64,000 bases of DNA from a phage. The DNA lies in sequence record PZ445521.1; one strand, given 5' to 3'. Made by a program: the position numbers and the translations under genes. This document shows, in pieces, positions 37,701 through 47,842 of the stretch (positions within the stretch are counted from its first letter, which is position 1; each line of letters starts with the position of its first letter). Below the pieces are notes generated by a model, which searched no databases, was not told where the DNA came from, and saw only the letters and a program-made list of their open reading frames with translations.

Positions 37701-38174
37701 TTATTTGAACGATTTAACGTACTGAATAGAACCTTTACTATTCACAAAGGCAATTTTACCATTTTTGTTATACATGGTAGCAGTACGTTGATAGCCATAA
37801 GTTTGTTTACCAGATTGATAACCAACTAATGCAAAATTATCTTCGCCCATTTTATTCTGTTTAGCGCGGATGCGTTCATGACCATGTGCCATAAGAACCT
37901 TAGCATCACCGGTTGCAATGGATCGACGAGTTTTTTCATCTTCAACTGTATTAACAAAGTCGTCAAATGAATCAAATTTAGCATGAGATTTATTATACAG
38001 TTTTCCATCTACTGCATAATTATATCCCTGTACATCCATCTCAACTTCTGTACCATCATCCAATACAGCAGTGATTTTTTGACCTTTTTTAAATTTCAAA
38101 AGATCAGTAAAAGATTCAGCAATAATTTGAGAATTAATAGCTGCTTCAGTGATAAATTCTTGATATGTTTTCAT
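37701..38174 (-). CDS. internal protein (ipIII-like), capsid-targeted
   Basis: 157 aa; N-terminus MKTYQEFITEA matches T4 IP capsid-targeting sequence. Confidence 0.65.
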   Translation of the reverse strand: MKTYQEFITEAAINSQIIAESFTDLLKFKKGQKITAVLDDGTEVEMDVQGYNYAVDGKLYNKSHAKFDSFDDFVNTVEDEKTRRSIATGDAKVLMAHGHERIRAKQNKMGEDNFALVGYQSGKQTYGYQRTATMYNKNGKIAFVNSKGSIQYVKSFK

Positions 38175-38190
38175 ATGATTCCTTTAATTT

Positions 38191-38508
38191 TTATTCTTTA
38201 GGAAAATTTTTAGAATATGCGTCGTAAAGCTTATTTCCAATACGACGAAAAACTCTAGCTGCAAAACGATTTTCTGGGTTTTTAATCATAATTTGCATCA
38301 TATAAGTACCCGCGTCTGAAAGAGCTTCTTCATAGTACCCGTTAATTTCTTTAAGAGTCCTACGTTTACCACCAGGACCATCAACAGTGATTTTCCATTT
38401 ACCTGTAGAAGTGCGACTCGGCGGCTCAACTTGTTCAATCCAAATATAACCGCCTTCTACACGTTGTCCTGCAGCAGATTCTGCAATAAATTCTTGATAT
38501 GTTTTCAT
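38191..38508 (-). CDS. internal protein (ipII-like), capsid-targeted
   Basis: 105 aa; N-terminus MKTYQEFIAES. Confidence 0.65.
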   Translation of the reverse strand: MKTYQEFIAESAAGQRVEGGYIWIEQVEPPSRTSTGKWKITVDGPGGKRRTLKEINGYYEEALSDAGTYMMQIMIKNPENRFAARVFRRIGNKLYDAYSKNFPKE

Positions 38509-38517
38509 ATGTTTCCT

Positions 38518-38934
38518 TTAAATGTAAATATTTTTACCGTAATACTTATACCAATGTGGTTTCATTAAAATTTTTTCATCAAGTCGTTGTTGACTCAATT
38601 TAATAGCTGATTTGCATGGATTATAATCATTTTTCCATTCTACTGGAATATCGCTGATGTCAGGAACTTCAGTATCTTTTATACTGAACCCTCGTTTTAA
38701 GCATTCCGTTATAATGTCTGATTGACGCTTTCGCAAAAATTCTAACTTATCGTAAAAGAACGTGACATGACCAGAACCTAAAATAAACTCGGAAGATATT
38801 TTAAAATCTTTAACGCGCTTACCGTTTGCCACATGCTTACGAACTATACCAAAAACACGTGGCAATTCACGGTATTCTGCGATTAAATGTTGATCAGCAA
38901 GTTCAGATACTAAAGTCAAATTAATACGAGTCAT
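38518..38934 (-). CDS. denV: endonuclease V, pyrimidine-dimer DNA glycosylase
   Basis: 138 aa; [27 protein letters not shown]... as T4 DenV. Confidence 0.95.
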
Positions 38935-38993
38935 TTTATCCCTCCAAGTAACTGTGAATATACTATCACAATTCTAGGAGAAAGTAAACAACT

Positions 38994-39962
<969 letters not shown>

Positions 39963-41814: not shown

Positions 41815-42408
41815 TTATTTCAGAGAATTAATATATTCCTGAACATCGGCAGAGGTGGTTTCAACCCCAGAAATATTACCATTAAAGGTTTCAACTCGAG
41901 CAAGAGTATCTTCAATATCAACCTTAGTCAGTGCTGCAATTTCAACTACATCATCGGCAGTACTAATTCCAAGTGCATTCGCTGCTCGAGTTTCACGGAT
42001 ATATTCCAATTTAACTGCAAGTTCTTGGCGAGCATCATCCAATTCAACTACTTTCTTGGCGATTTCAATTCGCATTTCAGCATACCCATCAGCTTTAGTA
42101 GTTAACTGTTCAGCTGTTCGACGATATAGCAAGCCGAGTTTAGCATGCATTGTTACATCTTGACCTTCAGAAAGAAGCTTGCGAATTTCACGCTCTTTTG
42201 ATTCGGCCTGCTTATTCTTTTCAACGATAAGTTCACGAATACGCTTTTCTTCATTAATAGATTTAATAGAAGCAGTTTTTAGATCTTTAATTTTATCAAG
42301 TAGTTTTGCTGCTGCAGCAGTATACTGTTCTTCAACAGATAGATTTTTAGCCATAGCAGAACCAAGTTTAGTGCGAATAAACTCAACAATTTTCTTCAGT
42401 GTGTTCAT
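41815..42408 (-). CDS. coiled-coil protein, PspA/IM30-like
   Basis: 197 aa, almost entirely helical; local resemblance to recalled E. coli PspA (DTLAR block). Confidence 0.45.
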
Positions 42409-42696
42409 AGTATTTCCTTAGGTTGATTAAGATTTAAAATCCGTGAGAGTATTATACTCCGGATAGTTTGTAAACTATTTCAACATCGCCTTTTGCTGCT
42501 TTATAACCTTCAGCCCAAGATATAACCGAGTTTTTATCTGAAGATTCAAATTCTGGCATTGGGCTTTCGCCAATGTTCACGCAGTATGTTTCTTCATTTT
42601 CGTCGAACCAAATAATTAAAGTAGTCATTTATTTCTCCGTTTCTGTATTTGTTTTGATAAGTCTATAATAACACCGTCCTTGGTGTTTGTACACAA

Positions 42697-42960
42697 TTAT
42701 TTCATATTATTGAAATATTCTTCTGCGATTTCGTCGTTATCATGGTAAACTTTAGAAGACAGTTTAACATAACCTTCAGCAGTGAACATATTAATCACAA
42801 CCTTTACAGTATACCACTGACCATCTTCATTACCCATTACTGCGTAAGTTTCAAACATCGGATGGTCAGGACCGATAACTTTAATATCATTCACTGTACG
42901 ACCAAAATCTTCTGAAACACATTTCATAAAGAAGTTGAACAGTTCGCCGTAATTATCCAT
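42697..42960 (-). CDS. hypothetical protein
   Basis: track ORF trimmed to MDNYGELF... with GGAGAA RBS just downstream of early promoter. Confidence 0.4.
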   Translation of the reverse strand: MDNYGELFNFFMKCVSEDFGRTVNDIKVIGPDHPMFETYAVMGNEDGQWYTVKVVINMFTAEGYVKLSSKVYHDNDEIAEEYFNNMK

Positions 42961-42997
42961 TTCATTCTCCAAGTTGTTTTTCTGTATCAGTAGTTGA

Positions 42998-43040
42998 TAG
43001 TTGTATAGTACCATGGAAGAATAGGGATGTAAACAGTTTT
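42998..43040 (-). promoter_or_regulatory. T4-type early promoter
   Basis: GTTTACA, 17 bp, TACTATAC. Confidence 0.7.
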
Positions 43041-43168
43041 GTGAAAAATTTTTTAAAAAGTTTTGGGGGAATTCTAGGGCAGGGAGGGGCAATTAAAGGA
43101 TAGGATAATATATTATAAAGGATAGAAACTAAATGATGCCTAGAGAGGCCCGGAAAGGCCTAGATACC

Positions 43169-43198
43169 AAAAAGCCCCAACCTTTTGGTCGGGGCTAA
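43169..43198 (-). repeat. hairpin-containing direct repeat (copy 1) flanking IP-like cassette
   Basis: AAAAAGCCCCAACCTTTTGGTCGGGGCTAAG; near-identical to copy at 43725-43754. Confidence 0.7.
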
Positions 43199-43203
43199 GA
43201 ATG

Positions 43204-43677
43204 TTATTTGATTTGTTTAGCAGACCAAATGCGGTCTTTAATAATTTTTTGGATGTCTTCAACATACTCAAGAGAGTGAGCATGTGGGTTATCTTTGAAA
43301 CTATAAGCACGAGCTAGCTTTTGGCCTTCAGTTTTGATTACTAAAAGCTCTTTAAGGATAGCTTCATATTTGGAGATAATTCCTTTAACAATATTTTTCT
43401 CTTGTGTAGCTTTAGGATCTGCTTTAGGAGCAGGTTTACCTGAAGCCTTTGCAAAAGCAGCTCCAGTAGCAACTAAACTTTTCCAGGCCATACTAACTGC
43501 ATTTCCCGTAAATCCTTCCGCTTTCATGTCGCGTGCGAACTGGAATCGCGATTCATCAGAAGCATCTTTATAAGAATATTTACCCGCTGCAATGGCTGCT
43601 TTTGCGACAGCTTGAATTTCGGTGCTAGATGCTTCATTTAACACCGCTTCATTTAAAAATTGAGCATATGATTTCAT
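43204..43677 (-). CDS. internal-protein-like capsid-targeted protein
   Basis: 157 aa; N-terminus MKSYAQFLNEA resembles IP capsid-targeting sequence; late promoter upstream; flanked by repeated hairpins. Confidence 0.55.
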   Translation of the reverse strand: MKSYAQFLNEAVLNEASSTEIQAVAKAAIAAGKYSYKDASDESRFQFARDMKAEGFTGNAVSMAWKSLVATGAAFAKASGKPAPKADPKATQEKNIVKGIISKYEAILKELLVIKTEGQKLARAYSFKDNPHAHSLEYVEDIQKIIKDRIWSAKQIK

Positions 43678-43713
43678 CTTATTTCCTGTTTTAATTCGTG
43701 GTTTTAATATACT

Positions 43714-43721
43714 TATTTATA
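43714..43721 (-). promoter_or_regulatory. late promoter (TATAAATA) upstream of IP-like gene 43204..43677
   Basis: plus-strand TATTTATA about 35 nt upstream of the start codon. Confidence 0.5.
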
Positions 43722-43724
43722 CTA

Positions 43725-43754
43725 AAAAGCCCCAACCTTTCGGTCGGGGCTAAG
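43725..43754 (-). repeat. hairpin-containing direct repeat (copy 2) flanking IP-like cassette
   Basis: AAAAAGCCCCAACCTTTCGGTCGGGGCTAAG; one mismatch to copy 1. Confidence 0.7.
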
Positions 43755-43789
43755 CCTTGCGGCAACCTTGTCGGGGTTCCACCTGCTAA

Positions 43790-43960
43790 GGCAAGTGTTT
43801 GTACGAAACGCCGGGATTCGAACCCGGTTATTAAGCAGTTGACGCTACTCAATATTTTTAAAAGGCCATATCTCGACCATATCCGAACGTTCCGTCAAAA
43901 ACGCTACTCGGCTTACGGCAAAGATATTTCCTCGAATCGATAATTCGGTGCGCCGTTTCT
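43790..43960 (-). ncRNA. candidate stable tRNA-like RNA(s), analogous in position to T4 RNA species 1/2
   Basis: T-arm-like CCGGGTTCGAATCCCGG on minus strand and repeated GAGTAGCG blocks in a non-coding stretch; no complete cloverleaf foldable by eye. Confidence 0.25.
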
Positions 43961-44062
43961 GCTGTGATATAAGGGGACATTAACAAAACATAAAGATTTA
44001 TTAATGCCAGTCCTTAAACAGGGAACATCAGTCCGACGACTTACCGGTAGCGACCCGGTTTC

Positions 44063-44410
44063 TTATTCTGACATATAATAAAGTTGCTCACGTCGTCTAC
44101 GCCATAAATTAATTGCTTCATGAGCACATTCAGCGTTCAGGATAGGACGACAATAATATAACGACTCACGTTTTTGGAACCGATGCTGCAATGGGATTTC
44201 ATTTAAAAGGTCTTTACGATCAAAGTATTCGTAACCATCTAAACCTACTGAACGATTTTTAATAAACTTCCAATGGCCGAATTCATTCTGAATATAAATG
44301 TAATCAGCGTGTTGGTATAATGCCATAATCTCACGGTCAGAAATAGCTGTTTCATGTTCGTTAAAATAAAACGTTAAATCATGTACTACTAAGTAAACAT
44401 TACCTTTCAT
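44063..44410 (-). CDS. hypothetical protein
   Basis: 115 aa ORF between tRNA-Arg and the candidate stable-RNA region. Confidence 0.45.
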   Translation of the reverse strand: MKGNVYLVVHDLTFYFNEHETAISDREIMALYQHADYIYIQNEFGHWKFIKNRSVGLDGYEYFDRKDLLNEIPLQHRFQKRESLYYCRPILNAECAHEAINLWRRRREQLYYMSE

Positions 44411-44428
44411 ATTTTCCTCACTTATAAT

Positions 44429-44504
44429 TGGTCGAGGCAGTAGGGATCGAACCTACGACCTAGGACTTAGAAGGTCCTTGCTCTTCCTTCTGAGCTATGC
44501 CCCG
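44429..44504 (-). tRNA. tRNA-Arg (anticodon UCU)
   Basis: hand-folded cloverleaf; T-arm GGTTCGATCC; anticodon loop CUUCUAA; CCA encoded. Confidence 0.85.
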
Positions 44505-44508
44505 TAAT

Positions 44509-44584
44509 TGGGGTGACCGATGGGAGTCGAACCCATGACTACGAGAATCACAATCTCGAGTTCTACCAACTGAACTACGGCCAC
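44509..44584 (-). tRNA. tRNA-His (anticodon GUG)
   Basis: hand-folded; anticodon loop UUGUGAU; discriminator C; CCA encoded. Confidence 0.8.
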
Positions 44585-44698
44585 ATTAATACCTACTCCA
44601 ACAATCAAGATGTCTTCACACGAAATTAAGAGAAGAGTGATCAGTTCAACCCCTATAATCGCGTCAAGTAGATATTAATGTGACAGTTGTCACAAATT

Positions 44699-44773
44699 TG
44701 GCGGACGTGATAGGATTCGAACCTATAACCAATCGCTTAACAGGCGATCGCTCTACCATTGAGCTACACATCC
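44699..44773 (-). tRNA. tRNA-Asn (anticodon GUU)
   Basis: hand-folded; anticodon loop CUGUUAA; CCA encoded. Confidence 0.8.
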
Positions 44774-44777
44774 AAAT

Positions 44778-44864
44778 TGGTGGGGAGTGGTGGAGTCGAA
44801 CCACCCGAGTCGCAATGACAATGAATTTACAGTCCACACCGCTACCTCTACGGGATAACTCCCC
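44778..44864 (-). tRNA. tRNA-Tyr (anticodon GUA), long variable arm
   Basis: hand-folded; acceptor GGGGAGU/ACUCCCC; anticodon loop CUGUAAA; D-arm pairing not resolved by eye. Confidence 0.7.
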
Positions 44865-44876
44865 TAATTCATAATT

Positions 44877-44951
44877 TGGTGGCCCTGGGTGGAATTGAAC
44901 CACCATCTGGCGATTATGAGTCGCTTGCTTGAACCTTCCAGCTACAGGGCC
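44877..44951 (-). tRNA. tRNA-Ile (anticodon CAU, lysidine-type)
   Basis: hand-folded; anticodon loop CUCAUAA; position as T4 tRNA-Ile. Confidence 0.75.
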
Positions 44952-44952
44952 T

Positions 44953-45028
44953 TGGTGCTGATTGACGGAATCGAACCGCCGACGTCCTCATTACAAGTGA
45001 GTTGCTCTACCTACTGAGCTAAATCAGC
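44953..45028 (-). tRNA. tRNA-Thr (anticodon UGU)
   Basis: hand-folded; anticodon loop CUUGUAA; CCA encoded. Confidence 0.85.
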
Positions 45029-45034
45029 AAAAAC

Positions 45035-45124
45035 TGGCGGAGGCGATAGGATTTGAACCTATGAGTCGCCGGAGCGACTGCCGGTTTTCAAGACCGGTGC
45101 ATTAAACCACTCTGCCACGCCTCC
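45035..45124 (-). tRNA. tRNA-Ser (anticodon UGA), long variable arm
   Basis: hand-folded; anticodon loop CUUGAAA; CCA encoded. Confidence 0.85.
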
Positions 45125-45126
45125 AG

Positions 45127-45200
45127 TCTCCATACAAGGATTTGAACCTTGGACCTCCTGATCCCAAATCAGGCGCTCTACCAAACTGAGCTACACGGAG
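45127..45200 (-). tRNA. tRNA-Pro (anticodon UGG)
   Basis: hand-folded; anticodon loop UUUGGGA; CCA not encoded. Confidence 0.8.
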
Positions 45201-45210
45201 TAAATTAAAT

Positions 45211-45284
<74 letters not shown>

Positions 45285-45289
45285 AAATT

Positions 45290-45376
45290 TGGTGCGAGAA
45301 GTGGGACTCGAACCCACAAGGAAATCATTCCGCAGCATTTTAAGTGCTGTGCCTTTACCAATTTGACCATTCTCGC
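45290..45376 (-). tRNA. tRNA-Leu (anticodon UAA), long variable arm
   Basis: hand-folded; anticodon loop CUUAAAA; CCA encoded. Confidence 0.85.
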
Positions 45377-45377
45377 G

Positions 45378-45450
45378 CTGGGAATAAAGGACTCGAACCT
45401 TTGCATCCTGGAATCAAAATCCAGTGCCTTACCAACTTGGCTAATTCCCA
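45378..45450 (-). tRNA. tRNA-Gln (anticodon UUG)
   Basis: hand-folded; anticodon loop UUUUGAU; 1-nt spacer to tRNA-Leu. Confidence 0.85.
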
Positions 45451-45547
45451 ATTATTAACAAAGGCTCTTTAGCAAGAACCCTTGATGATAGAGGGTATTA
45501 ATCAGTGCGGTATGAGTTAATAATAACAAATAATTCTTAAAGCATAT

Positions 45548-45841
45548 TTACCATTTATGATAATACATATTTACGATGCATTCAAGACCCAAAGGATTCT
45601 TGAAAATATCATATTCAAGAGGACCTTTTTCTGTTTCAATAAAGAAATCAAAATTTACTGTATTAAATTTACGGTCTTCCTTCACTAATTTAACTTGAGA
45701 AGATGAACGGTCAACATAAACCTTTTCAACTTCAAAACATGTTAAAATGCCATAATCATCAATCAAGGCTTTAGCTGCTTCTTGATCATATTTATATCCA
45801 TTTTCAATGGATGATACTTTAGCATAAAGAATCATTATCAA
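45548..45841 (-). CDS. hypothetical protein
   Basis: 97 aa ORF. Confidence 0.45.
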   Translation of the reverse strand: MIMILYAKVSSIENGYKYDQEAAKALIDDYGILTCFEVEKVYVDRSSSQVKLVKEDRKFNTVNFDFFIETEKGPLEYDIFKNPLGLECIVNMYYHKW

Positions 45842-46221
45842 CCTTCATCAACAATAGTATGAGTATGGGCATTTACAATTTGCCACCAATCAAAGCGATT
45901 AGAACCATACATCGGTTTGTTTTCATTTTCTTTGATAATATCACGAAGTTCATCTTCAGTAGCGGCTTTCGCGATTAAATCAGCATATCCACCACGAGGA
46001 TAATAATTATCACCTGCAAAAAGTAAAAAGTTTGGTTTAATGTTATTGAACTCTTCAAGAGTAATAACTGTTCCTGATGGTAGTTGAACAATCTCTACAT
46101 ATTTATATCCTAATTTTTGAGCAGCATCTACTGCTTCAAGCAAAGTATCATGAGCCCATCCAATTTGACAACCTGGCTTTTCAGATGGATTAGCCTGATA
46201 ATCCGCGTACACTTTATACAT
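45838..46221 (-). CDS. hypothetical protein
   Basis: track ORF trimmed to MYKVYADYQ... (127 aa). Confidence 0.45.
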   Translation of the reverse strand: MYKVYADYQANPSEKPGCQIGWAHDTLLEAVDAAQKLGYKYVEIVQLPSGTVITLEEFNNIKPNFLLFAGDNYYPRGGYADLIAKAATEDELRDIIKENENKPMYGSNRFDWWQIVNAHTHTIVDEG

Positions 46222-46222
46222 T

Positions 46223-46408
46223 CTATTCACCTTTAGAAATTTTATCCATAACGACAGCAATTAAACCAATTAAAAATGCTACTACAAGTGAAAACACATT
46301 TTCTGCTGTAGTTAATAATCCACATATAAATCCAACAAACATTGAAAAACTAAAAGCAGAAGCAGAAATTGCAATAGCAACATTTCGAATTAATTCACAG
46401 CGTTTCAT
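46223..46408 (-). CDS. small membrane protein
   Basis: 61 aa, hydrophobic; directly downstream of early promoter 46428-46470. Confidence 0.4.
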   Translation of the reverse strand: MKRCELIRNVAIAISASAFSFSMFVGFICGLLTTAENVFSLVVAFLIGLIAVVMDKISKGE

Positions 46409-46427
46409 TTTATTCTCCTCAGTAGTT

Positions 46428-46470
46428 GATAGGGTAATAGTATCACTACCCTATCTAAAAGTAAACTCAT
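46428..46470 (-). promoter_or_regulatory. T4-type early promoter inside inverted repeat
   Basis: GTTTACT, spacer, TACTATTAC; -10 flanked by GATAGGG/CCCTATC inverted repeat. Confidence 0.6.
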
Positions 46471-46700
46471 TTTTTACGAAAAATTGATTTATTTTCTGCT
46501 GCCCATTTTTCAATAACTGCAACCGGACCAGTAACAACAATTTTATCACCGTAATCTTCTGCGGCGAGTTGACCGAAATTATCTAATGCATCACGAAGAA
46601 CTCCATGAGGCATTTCACCCATTTTATCTTTCTTGCCAGTGTAAATAAACTCAACTTTTACATCAGAAGATTCAGCGATAAATTCTTGATACGTTTTCAT
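46467..46700 (-). CDS. internal-protein-like capsid-targeted protein
   Basis: track ORF trimmed to MKTYQEFIAESS... (77 aa) with GGAGAA RBS; own early promoter. Confidence 0.55.
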   Translation of the reverse strand: MKTYQEFIAESSDVKVEFIYTGKKDKMGEMPHGVLRDALDNFGQLAAEDYGDKIVVTGPVAVIEKWAAENKSIFRKK

Positions 46701-46727
46701 TTTATTCTCCAATTTCACATTTGTTTT

Positions 46728-46770
46728 GATAGGGTAATAGTATCACTACTAAAACCCCGTGTAAACAACT
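46728..46770 (-). promoter_or_regulatory. T4-type early promoter (IP-like gene)
   Basis: GTTTACA, 17 bp, TACTATTAC. Confidence 0.65.
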
Positions 46771-46785
46771 TTGTGAAATTGTTTA

Positions 46786-47073
46786 TTACAAAAGATTTTT
46801 AGCAATAATCTTGAGATGTGCTGCAGAAATGTGTTTAGCTTTAAACAACGCAGTTTCTTCGGCAGGAGAGATAACGATTGTAGCACCATCCTTTTTAGCA
46901 GACCACCCATCACCTAGGTAAACAGTACCTTTGATTTCTTCGCCATCAACCAGACTAATCATTGGTTTACCTTCTCGTCCTTTATTTGCTTTAATAACTT
47001 CAGAAGTAAGAGTAGCTTCGGTAATGGTAGAAACCGGGGTAGTTGTAGAAGTAAATTCTTTAAATGTTTTCAT
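46786..47073 (-). CDS. ipI: internal protein I (IPI)
   Basis: 95 aa; MKTFKEFTSTTTPVSTITEATLTSEVIKANKG... as recalled T4 IPI; own early promoter. Confidence 0.9.
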   Translation of the reverse strand: MKTFKEFTSTTTPVSTITEATLTSEVIKANKGREGKPMISLVDGEEIKGTVYLGDGWSAKKDGATIVISPAEETALFKAKHISAAHLKIIAKNLL

Positions 47074-47096
47074 TTTATTTTCCTAATTAATTTTGA

Positions 47097-47137
47097 TGAG
47101 ATAATAGTATCACTACCTCATCAGCATGTAAACAACT
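47097..47137 (-). promoter_or_regulatory. T4-type early promoter (ipI) inside inverted repeat
   Basis: GTTTACA, 17 bp, TACTATTAT; -10 flanked by GATGAG/CTCATC inverted repeat. Confidence 0.65.
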
Positions 47138-47145
47138 TTGTGAAA

Positions 47146-47842
<697 letters not shown>

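Follow-up and report, generated by a model that had tools for sequence, protein, structure and literature searches.

We analyzed a stretch of phage DNA of 64,000 nucleotides (PZ445521.1; its whole length is referred to as the window) and found, between its homologues of the T4 genes rnaC and e.8, a gene of 157 aa on the minus strand, designated gene A, which we conclude, at a probability of roughly 0.6, to belong to a late-expressed, head-packaged internal-protein (Ip) family (phrog_2280) that occupies a third Ip locus and is gained and lost by recombination at transcription terminators. The surrounding region (42600-44100) has an identity of 96-99% with those of several hundred T4-like phages and matches that of Shigella phage JK38 (MK962755, genus Tequatrovirus) at 100%. 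All local genes are on the minus strand and are, in the order of transcription, the ipI locus, the homologues of trna.4, trna.3 and trna.2, 11 tRNA genes, an open reading frame (ORF) of 115 aa, the homologues of rnaD and rnaC, gene A, e.8 and e.6. In some relatives, the site between e.8 and rnaC holds an alternative gene of 187 aa, designated gene B.

The site was found in four states, that is, empty, with A, with B, and with both A and B. In T4, which has no ORF at the site, e.8 is followed by a purine-rich tract, a single copy of a hairpin (ATACCAAAAAGCCCCAACCTTTCGGTCGGGGCTAA) and rnaC. Compared with T4, JK38 has exactly one repeat, one promoter and one ORF more, amounting to 555 bp, and the single T4 copy of the repeat consists of the left flank of the left copy of JK38 and the loop and right flank of its right copy. 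RB14 has B alone (RB14ncORF136c, 187 aa, starting with MKTYAEFLTE-AAK), and JLBYU22 has A and B in tandem, in the order of rnaC, hairpin, TATAAATA, A, hairpin, GATAAATA, B, a different hairpin, TTTTTGGTATCTAGG, the purine-rich tract and e.8. In RB14, what comes straight after the rnaC hairpin is the sequence that JLBYU22 has beyond its A-distal hairpin, and, as read from these alignments, A was deleted in RB14 between the two copies of the hairpin. A GGGCTTTTT/GGTAT junction marks the difference between the A-only and A+B states. We consider repeat-mediated loss and gain of the unit to be likely.

The frequency of the states was estimated from database records. When the empty site of T4 was used as a query, it spanned 491 bp in some of the sampled records (T4, T6, ACG-C40, N2, BF15 and others), approximately 1046-1050 bp in those with gene A and approximately 1174-1180 bp in RB14 and others, with the flanks being too far apart to be joined in the remaining records. 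Junction-specific searches, which gave rough counts with duplicate records included, indicated A beside the purine-rich tract in approximately 278 records and A followed by B in approximately 128. B was present in 165 records in all and the flanks were joinable in 389, giving by subtraction approximately 37 records with B alone and approximately 74 empty ones. Roughly 85% of Tequatrovirus-type records accordingly carry genes at the locus in this census, T4 and T6 being without them. An earlier reading of this stretch, made from the sequence alone, had proposed a cassette in which effectors can be swapped, and a polymorphic unit with junctions at terminators was indeed found, but B is probably a distant relative of A and not an unrelated effector. 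The variation among relatives that such a cassette entails is present, with T4 and T6 being empty with a single hairpin and others having A, B or both. The same reading had allowed that the repeats might be ordinary terminators without polymorphism; ordinary terminators they are, but the junctions of the states fall within their hairpin or T-run sequences. Of the three outcomes that it had named as refuting, none was obtained, and its interpretation is supported as far as sequence, comparisons among phages and published proteomics can carry it.

The unit is delimited by a direct repeat of 36 nt (Table 1), the two copies of which are identical at 34 of the 36 positions and are the only ones in the 64 kb with up to three mismatches allowed, where 0 would be expected. 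On the minus strand, each copy folds into a stem of 10 bp, seven of them G-C, which closes a loop of 4 nt and is followed by U5, with free energies of -19.5 and -20.3 kcal/mol (z of about -4). As predicted from these features, both are intrinsic terminators, one after rnaC and the other after the stop codon of gene A. The sequence-only reading had described near-identical repeats of 31 bp with GNRA-loop hairpins, of which the near-identity and the folding of both copies were confirmed, whereas the length had to be corrected to 36 nt and the GNRA loop limited to the right copy (GAAA), the left one having AAAA. The late-promoter motif that it had placed on the minus strand upstream of gene A is an exact match, TATAAATA, and is found at the same position in JLBYU22 and Klebsiella phage KpV477, with AATAAATA (7/8) in Mosigvirus phage AlbertHofmann, directly after the terminator T-run; this conservation of position is what makes the motif at gene A meaningful. 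The record of phage Lutter has the octamer annotated as a promoter and the hairpins as terminators, and a promoter scan found no sigma-70-like site between the right terminator copy and the ATG of gene A.

Gene A is a real gene under strong purifying selection, as indicated by a ratio of nonsynonymous to synonymous substitution rates (dN/dS) of 0.067, with dS near saturation, in the comparison with the AlbertHofmann copy (77% aa identity). Its homologues were found only in T4-like phages, in 512 phage records and in 14 clusters of a large protein collection. The database records for A and B are nearly all named hypothetical and the PHROG is of unknown function; one UniRef entry for the Klebsiella-phage homologue is named "Internal head protein", indicating that at least one annotator has made the connection. 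Frameshifted or truncated copies of gene A are frequent, with P0006, P0008 and P0009 being truncated and the protein match being split in two in several sampled records; with its absence from T4, T6 and ACG-C40 and the four states of the site, gene A is non-essential and variable. In P0006, P0009 and P0019, the reading frame is shifted after QEK in a run of GAGAAAAATAT (43388-43398 region), giving products of 97-111 aa, and this run may be a recurrent slippage site inactivating gene A.

The N-terminus of the gene A protein, MKSYAQFLNE, has the form of a capsid-targeting sequence (CTS). Truncation and suppressor experiments on IPIII indicated that the first 10 residues are enough for packaging, with residues 4 and 7 setting targeting and residues 8 and 10 setting processing, and foreign proteins bearing only the 10-residue CTS are packaged (PMC9026906). 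All four mapped IPIII positions are kept in gene A, namely the targeting residues Y4 and F7 and the residues of the site of the prohead protease gp21 (I/L at 8 and Glu at 10), the latter present as a sequence motif of L8-N9-E10 followed by Ala, with a second one, VLNE-A, at residues 12-16. The second site is a product of the 15-bp duplication (Table 1), which is missing in the Mosigvirus and Klebsiella-phage homologues in the protein alignment. Homologues start with MKTYNEFLNESVLTE-AS, MKSYAEFLTE-QS, MKTYNEFLMTE-AS, MLEYSEFLKELFCE-AS or MKFKEFLAE-AS, and a hydrophobic-x-E directly before A/Q-S-S is kept in all full-length homologues. Those of Mosigvirus, Jiaodavirus and Yersinia phages retain both a CTS-like start and such a site despite the varying length of the propeptide. 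The motif MK[ST][YF]x[EQ]F was found at 5 of the 604 Met starts (at least 40 codons) in the window, that is, those of gene A, two genes of the ipI locus and two genes beside denV (38191-38508 and 37701-38174), against a chance expectation of approximately 0.002 by our own estimate from amino-acid frequencies. The likening of the start of this ORF to those of T4 internal proteins in the sequence-only reading is thereby borne out, with the motif being otherwise present only in genes of known Ip loci.

Evidence from virions is available for an orthologue. Yersinia phage phiD1 (fD1) has the locus at 98% nucleotide identity with g140 in the position of gene A, and g140 (157 aa, 17.3 kDa) is a PPAP (phage particle-associated protein), which means that it was identified using liquid chromatography-tandem mass spectrometry in ultracentrifuge-purified virions at a strict threshold (Table S3, PMC8309999). 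Its neighbors g138 and g139 (e.8) are not PPAPs, and g129, a 157-aa CTS protein beside denV, is one (PMC8309999). The fD1 virion dataset is public as PXD026812 (ProteomeXchange); the paper on phage fPS-65 contains no proteome. The detection of g140 supports packaging moderately, the specificity of the preparation being low, and we regard packaging of the gene A protein in the head as likely.

From these observations, we infer late transcription, CTS-dependent packaging, cleavage, injection and an anti-defense function, which would be connected in the following manner. Gene A would be transcribed only late, from the TATAAATA promoter right after the terminator of the tRNA/rnaC operon, the 10-residue CTS would carry its protein into the prohead core, and gp21 would remove the leader at L-N-E after residue 10 and/or 15, leaving AVLNEASSTEIQAVAK or ASSTEIQAVAK as the predicted new N-terminus. 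The basic helical mature protein (approximately 15.5-16 kDa) would stay in the DNA-filled head and be delivered to the next host with the DNA, where its most likely action, by analogy with Ip1-3, would be to neutralize host defense; such an injected anti-defense role is a tentative proposal. Promoter, gene and terminator would form one unit bounded by the two 36-nt repeat copies, and homologous recombination or replication slippage between the copies would delete the unit exactly, leaving a single hairpin, which is how T4 and T6 are arranged. A further unit (gene B) would be added, removed or exchanged, both inside genera and from one to another, when recombination occurs at these terminator and T-run sequences. 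As a still more tentative extension, the e.8-rnaC site could be a third Ip locus with a diversifying A/B family of late-made, packaged and injected inhibitors of host defense, for example against GmrSD-type or other modification-dependent restriction variants, that moves within and between genera via the tRNA-operon terminator and may have been overlooked since T4 and T6 lost it. If so, the locus would add two candidates, A and B, to the arms race between Ips and GmrSD, and natural carriers could be compared with T4 and T6, which have no genes at the locus, as a clean basis for experiments.

The unit has features of two known systems. Ip genes are diverse with only a leader in common, Ip1-3 each inhibit a distinct variant of the type IV restriction enzyme GmrSD, and at least ten Ips from "two Ip loci" have been described, including Ip4-10, for which tests found no target (Silas et al, 2025, PMC12373910). 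Repoila et al (1994) are reported to have found the Ip loci to be highly polymorphic, with ORFs sharing only the N-terminal leader and with shuffling within loci. Like Ip1 (IPI), Ip2 (IPII) and Ip3 (IPIII) of T4 and Ip4-10 of other T-even phages, gene A is small, non-essential, variable and basic, with an orthologue detected in a virion preparation of low specificity; it has the leader MK(T/S)(Y/F)x(E/Q)F(I/L)xE with the targeting and gp21-cleavage residues and is a unit between conserved regulatory blocks. Repoila and coworkers reportedly described conserved flanking transcription signals as well. Unlike these Ips, however, gene A lies neither beside 57B/trna.4 nor beside denV/e but past the tRNA cluster, on its downstream side, in the interval from rnaC to e.8. 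Outside the leader it resembles no Ip in sequence or fold. The conserved blocks on its two sides are hairpins of terminators, accompanied by a late promoter; those at the ipI locus in the window are repeated early-promoter blocks.

The other system is the recombination at promoter-early stem-loop (PeSL) elements, which deletes, inserts and circularizes accessory ORFs with crossovers inside the stem-loops (Arbiol, 2010, PMC2839356; Comeau, 2014, PMC4122927). Similarly to PeSL cassettes, an accessory ORF lies here between repeated regulatory stem-loop elements, a single element is present at the empty site of a close relative (T4), and recombination is proposed to occur between the flanking elements. 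Unlike PeSLs, the repeat comprises only a stem-loop and T-run with no sigma-70 early promoter, one copy being followed by a late promoter, and there are two copies in 64 kb rather than a dispersed family; the nearest early promoter is approximately 130 nt beyond the left copy. The right copy is a direct and nearly identical homologue of the tRNA/rnaC terminator of T4, from which the present arrangement differs in that the terminator is duplicated, with the second copy terminating a late gene that was either inserted or retained. The unit works like both systems and yet lacks features that define each, namely the locus for Ips and the sigma-70 promoter and dispersal for PeSLs, and gene A is a new member, at a new locus, of an already known kind (Ip genes; PeSL shuffling). 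The locus shows, in a natural and compact form, how genes are gained and lost at repeated terminators and, if our reading is correct, carries the PeSL concept over from early promoters to a unit of a terminator and a late promoter.

Genes of the A/B kind were found at the same site in four Tevenvirinae genera. In Mosigvirus AlbertHofmann, gene A lies directly after the rnaC terminator, with a hairpin copy on either side that ends in TTTTTGGTAT. In the stems of both copies, TT stands where Tequatrovirus has GA; this shared change suggests that the copies have exchanged sequence. In KpV477 (Jiaodavirus), there are a terminator, TTTTTAGTATAAATA and a 177-aa homologue (MKFKEFLAE-AS), this copy having an in-frame stop, and Enterobacter phage IME523 (Kanagawavirus) has GATAAATA, a B-type protein of 208 aa (MLNFNEFLIE...), a terminator and TTTTTGGCATCTAGG, the protein being 28% identical to B over 182 aa (E=2e-6). 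As the family is present at the site across genera, it is old there and the state of T4 and T6 is most simply a deletion; gene A looks ancestral at the site. RB69 (Mosigvirus) has a 1.5-kb block comprising rnaD/rnaC, B, the terminator and e.8 (1070-2575 of L008, compared with L004 for RB14 and L005 for AlbertHofmann) that is 94.5% identical to Tequatrovirus RB14 within far more diverged flanks, and its left breakpoint relative to AlbertHofmann is at the rnaC terminator, so that the alignment looks like a recent exchange between genera with the rnaC hairpin as the boundary. The B copy of RB69 is split into ORF148c and ORF149c, and a literature search by locus tag (RB69ORF148c and others) found no paper.

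Several points weigh against the proposed reading. The motif TATAAATA is not enriched in the window, with a count of 12 against 10.3 expected by chance, and the known Ip genes of the window have early-type promoters directly upstream, so that the regulation of gene A differs from theirs. The frequent frameshifted and truncated copies indicate that gene A is dispensable under laboratory isolation conditions. With respect to virions, the presence anticipated by the sequence-only reading was found for g140 at the strict threshold, yet 113 of the 277 phage proteins of phiD1 (41%) passed it too, among them plainly non-structural ones (DenV, lysozyme, NudE and dNMP kinase), and the preparation also contained 672 host proteins beside 113-137 phage proteins (PMC8309999). 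The predicted structure is of moderate confidence and gave no informative match: the AlphaFold2 model (pLDDT 76.6) is all-helical with six helices, comprising an N-domain of three helices, a linker rich in K/P/A and a long hairpin of helices, and a Foldseek search against BFVD and PDB returned only matches of its own family, the others being at E>0.7. Pfam and NCBIfam scans of A and B gave only noise, and a sequence-profile search of PDB gave no match.

The relation between A and B also bears on this issue. Both match phrog_2280 over the full length (E=3e-60 and 1e-53, respectively) and have the same overall architecture with a weak common AWKSL-TGAA-K/P-rich motif, whereas their direct comparison by BLASTP and hhalign showed similarity only in the first 11-12 residues. 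Judging from the PHROG, the bridging Kanagawavirus protein and the motif, A and B are probably distantly related, and the common PHROG would be more in keeping with a family that diversifies at one fixed site than with unrelated effectors being swapped freely, which is another point against the cassette as originally conceived.

Among the alternatives, the one that survives best, although unlikely, is that the gene A protein is packaged as a general basic, DNA-associated head-filling or core protein with no specific anti-defense target, the variability reflecting low constraint. The predicted mature form, with an isoelectric point of 9.5, 20 Lys and the K/P/A-rich linker, would suit such a role, which was long supposed for IPII and IPIII, and in T4 heads the phosphates of the DNA are contacted by lysines of internal proteins (PMC3012670). 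The lack of a fold or family match to any inhibitor and the loss or frameshifting of gene A at no obvious cost also agree with it. However, a dN/dS of 0.067 across genera indicates a constrained fold and not bulk charge alone, IPII and IPIII, once thought to be generic, are now known as specific GmrSD inhibitors (PMC12373910), and genes engaged in an arms race typically show this kind of polymorphism, in presence or absence and with two diverged types.

It is rather improbable that the repeats resemble each other merely as terminators of the same local type, with the insertions and deletions having arisen from illegitimate events or whole-segment import. This explanation gains from B ending in an unrelated hairpin (CCCTATC...GATAGGG), which means that the A-only and A+B states share only approximately 9-12 nt (GGGCTTTTT/GGTAT) at their junction, and from the downstream hairpin of KpV477, which is unrelated to the upstream one. 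The identity of the two copies nevertheless exceeds what a terminator needs, extending to CTTAG before the stem and GGTAT after the T-run, and they have no other counterpart in the 64 kb. Further points for recombination at the repeats are the hybrid nature of the single T4 copy, the direct joint in RB14, the derived stem changes shared by both Mosigvirus copies, and the experimental demonstration of recombination within such stem-loops for PeSLs (PMC2839356, PMC4122927).

Least probable is that gene A is an ordinary non-virion late accessory gene with a CTS likeness from shared ancestry or chance and with g140 carried over as a contaminant, for which the crowded phiD1 preparation, the position outside the two described Ip loci and the almost uniformly hypothetical database records may speak, but which is opposed by a leader motif expected by chance only at approximately 0.002 and yet confined to gene A and known Ip genes, by the conservation of the four mapped CTS positions and, across genera despite indels, of L-x-E, by the non-detection of the adjacent g138 and g139 in the same proteome, and by the sufficiency of the 10-residue CTS for packaging foreign proteins (PMC9026906).

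Table 1. Features of the e.8-rnaC site and its surroundings (positions in the window)
Feature	Position	Strand	Basis or remark
e.8 homologue, 87 aa	42697..42960	-	phrog_2678; T4 annotation and alignment; conserved downstream neighbor of the site
Early (sigma-70-type) promoter of e.8: TTTACA, 17-nt spacer, TG, TACTAT	43005..43033	-	Promoter scan; annotated promoter in phage Lutter
Purine-rich tract, between the terminators and the UP/-35 region of the e.8 early promoter	43060..43140	+	Composition rank
Second small hairpin, GGCCUU-UCCG-GGGCCU, just after the terminator	43146..43161	-	Fold
Left (downstream) repeat copy, predicted terminator of gene A; hairpin 43173-43196, AAAA loop, U5	43164..43199	-	Annotated terminator in phage Lutter
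Gene A, 157 aa, starting with MKSYAQFLNEAVLNEASS	43204..43677	-	ORF call; phrog_2280 (function unknown), E=3e-60
15-bp tandem duplication doubling the LNE-A site (FLNEA-VLNEA)	43631..43656	-	Direct repeat D7, GCTTCATTTAA twice, 15-nt spacing
Codons 1-10, MKSYAQFLNE, CTS-like propeptide with, at its end, an L-x-E site of the type recognized by the prohead protease (gp21)	43648..43677	-	Comparison with IPIII
Shine-Dalgarno sequence AGGAAA, 4 nt before ATG	43682..43687	-	Read from the sequence
T4-type late promoter motif TATAAATA, 36 nt before ATG, abutting the T-run of the upstream terminator, first three bases inside the repeat	43714..43721	-	Motif scan
Right (upstream) repeat copy, predicted terminator of the tRNA/rnaC unit; hairpin 43728-43751, GAAA loop, U5	43719..43754	-	Homologue of the single T4 copy downstream of rnaC
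rnaC (T4 species 1 RNA) homologue	43802..43940	-	Coordinates transferred from T4, gap-free alignment, offset +38893; conserved upstream neighbor

The purine-rich tract downstream of gene A, which the sequence-only reading had singled out as unusual, is real and extreme in composition, ranking in the top 0.01-0.02% of windows of 50-80 nt by purine content. It is not a part of the unit, a possibility that was considered and rejected, since T4 has the tract without the ORF; the tract thus belongs to the upstream region of e.8, independently of the cassette. The tract was found in T4, RB14, JLBYU22 and RB69 (deduced from the block of 94.5% identity) and is absent in AlbertHofmann, and KpV477 has a related pyrimidine-rich stretch, as seen on the coding strand, before the next early promoter. 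A G-quadruplex motif (43065-43089, plus strand) is the only canonical one, defined by four runs of at least three G with loops of up to 7 nt, in the 64-kb window of 35% G+C, where 0.02 would be expected; the motif is also present in RB14 and JLBYU22, with T4 lacking the fourth G-run. On the transcribed (minus) strand, the tract has 31% C and 7% G, a composition that resembles Rho-loading sites. The small hairpin just after the left terminator copy (Table 1) is unlikely to be functional, as two substitutions break it in T4. An in-frame upstream extension of e.8 (ORF 42697-43092) was likewise rejected as coding, T4 being annotated with the 87-aa form and the e.8 promoter lying inside the extension.

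On the upstream side, the homologues of rnaC and rnaD (T4 species 1 and 2 stable RNAs; 43802-44064, minus strand) are approximately 97% conserved with T4. When phage records were searched with the T4 locus, the flank on the side of rnaC, with at least a part of rnaC itself, was matched in Mosigvirus and, at lower similarity, in a single phage each of Karamvirus and Kanagawavirus. In 42000-47500, an Rfam scan detected only tRNAs, with no match for the hairpins, the purine-rich tract or rnaC/rnaD. The 115-aa ORF (44063-44410, minus strand; phrog_3355, function unknown) is located within the transcription unit of the tRNAs, with the rnaD homologue on one side and tRNA-Arg on the other, and is also present in Lutter, AlbertHofmann and RB69 (ORF150c), whereas rnaD abuts tRNA-Arg in T4, with segB nearby instead. 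The tRNA cluster (44429-45450, minus strand) has 11 genes (Arg, His, Asn, Tyr, Met/Ile-CAU, Thr, Ser, Pro, Gly, Leu and Gln) compared with 8 in T4 and is without the homing endonuclease gene segB; the content of this cluster is polymorphic among T4-like phages.

The two other loci with CTS genes in the window are arranged differently. The ipI locus (46440-47140, minus strand) contains IPI (46786-47073; Pfam PF11634) and a second gene for an "internal virion protein" (46467-46697; phrog_8111), each preceded by a block of approximately 45 nt (ATTTCACAAAGTTGTTTACA...GTGATACTATTA(C/T)C), the 3' part of which (GGTAGTGATACTATTACCCTATCAA) also precedes trna.4. In front of the two Ip genes, these blocks include an early promoter; they belong to the type that has been described as a shuffling substrate at Ip loci, in contrast to the terminator repeats at the e.8-rnaC site. 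Beside denV (37701-38508, minus strand, and 38518-39488), two CTS genes of 157 aa (MKTYQEFITE...) and 105 aa (MKTYQEFIAE...) are located downstream of denV. The phiD1 homologue of the 157-aa protein is g129, which is annotated as "Head protein" and is the PPAP mentioned above. The order of genes here is e, denV, ip and ip, compared with e, ipIII, ipII and denV in T4.

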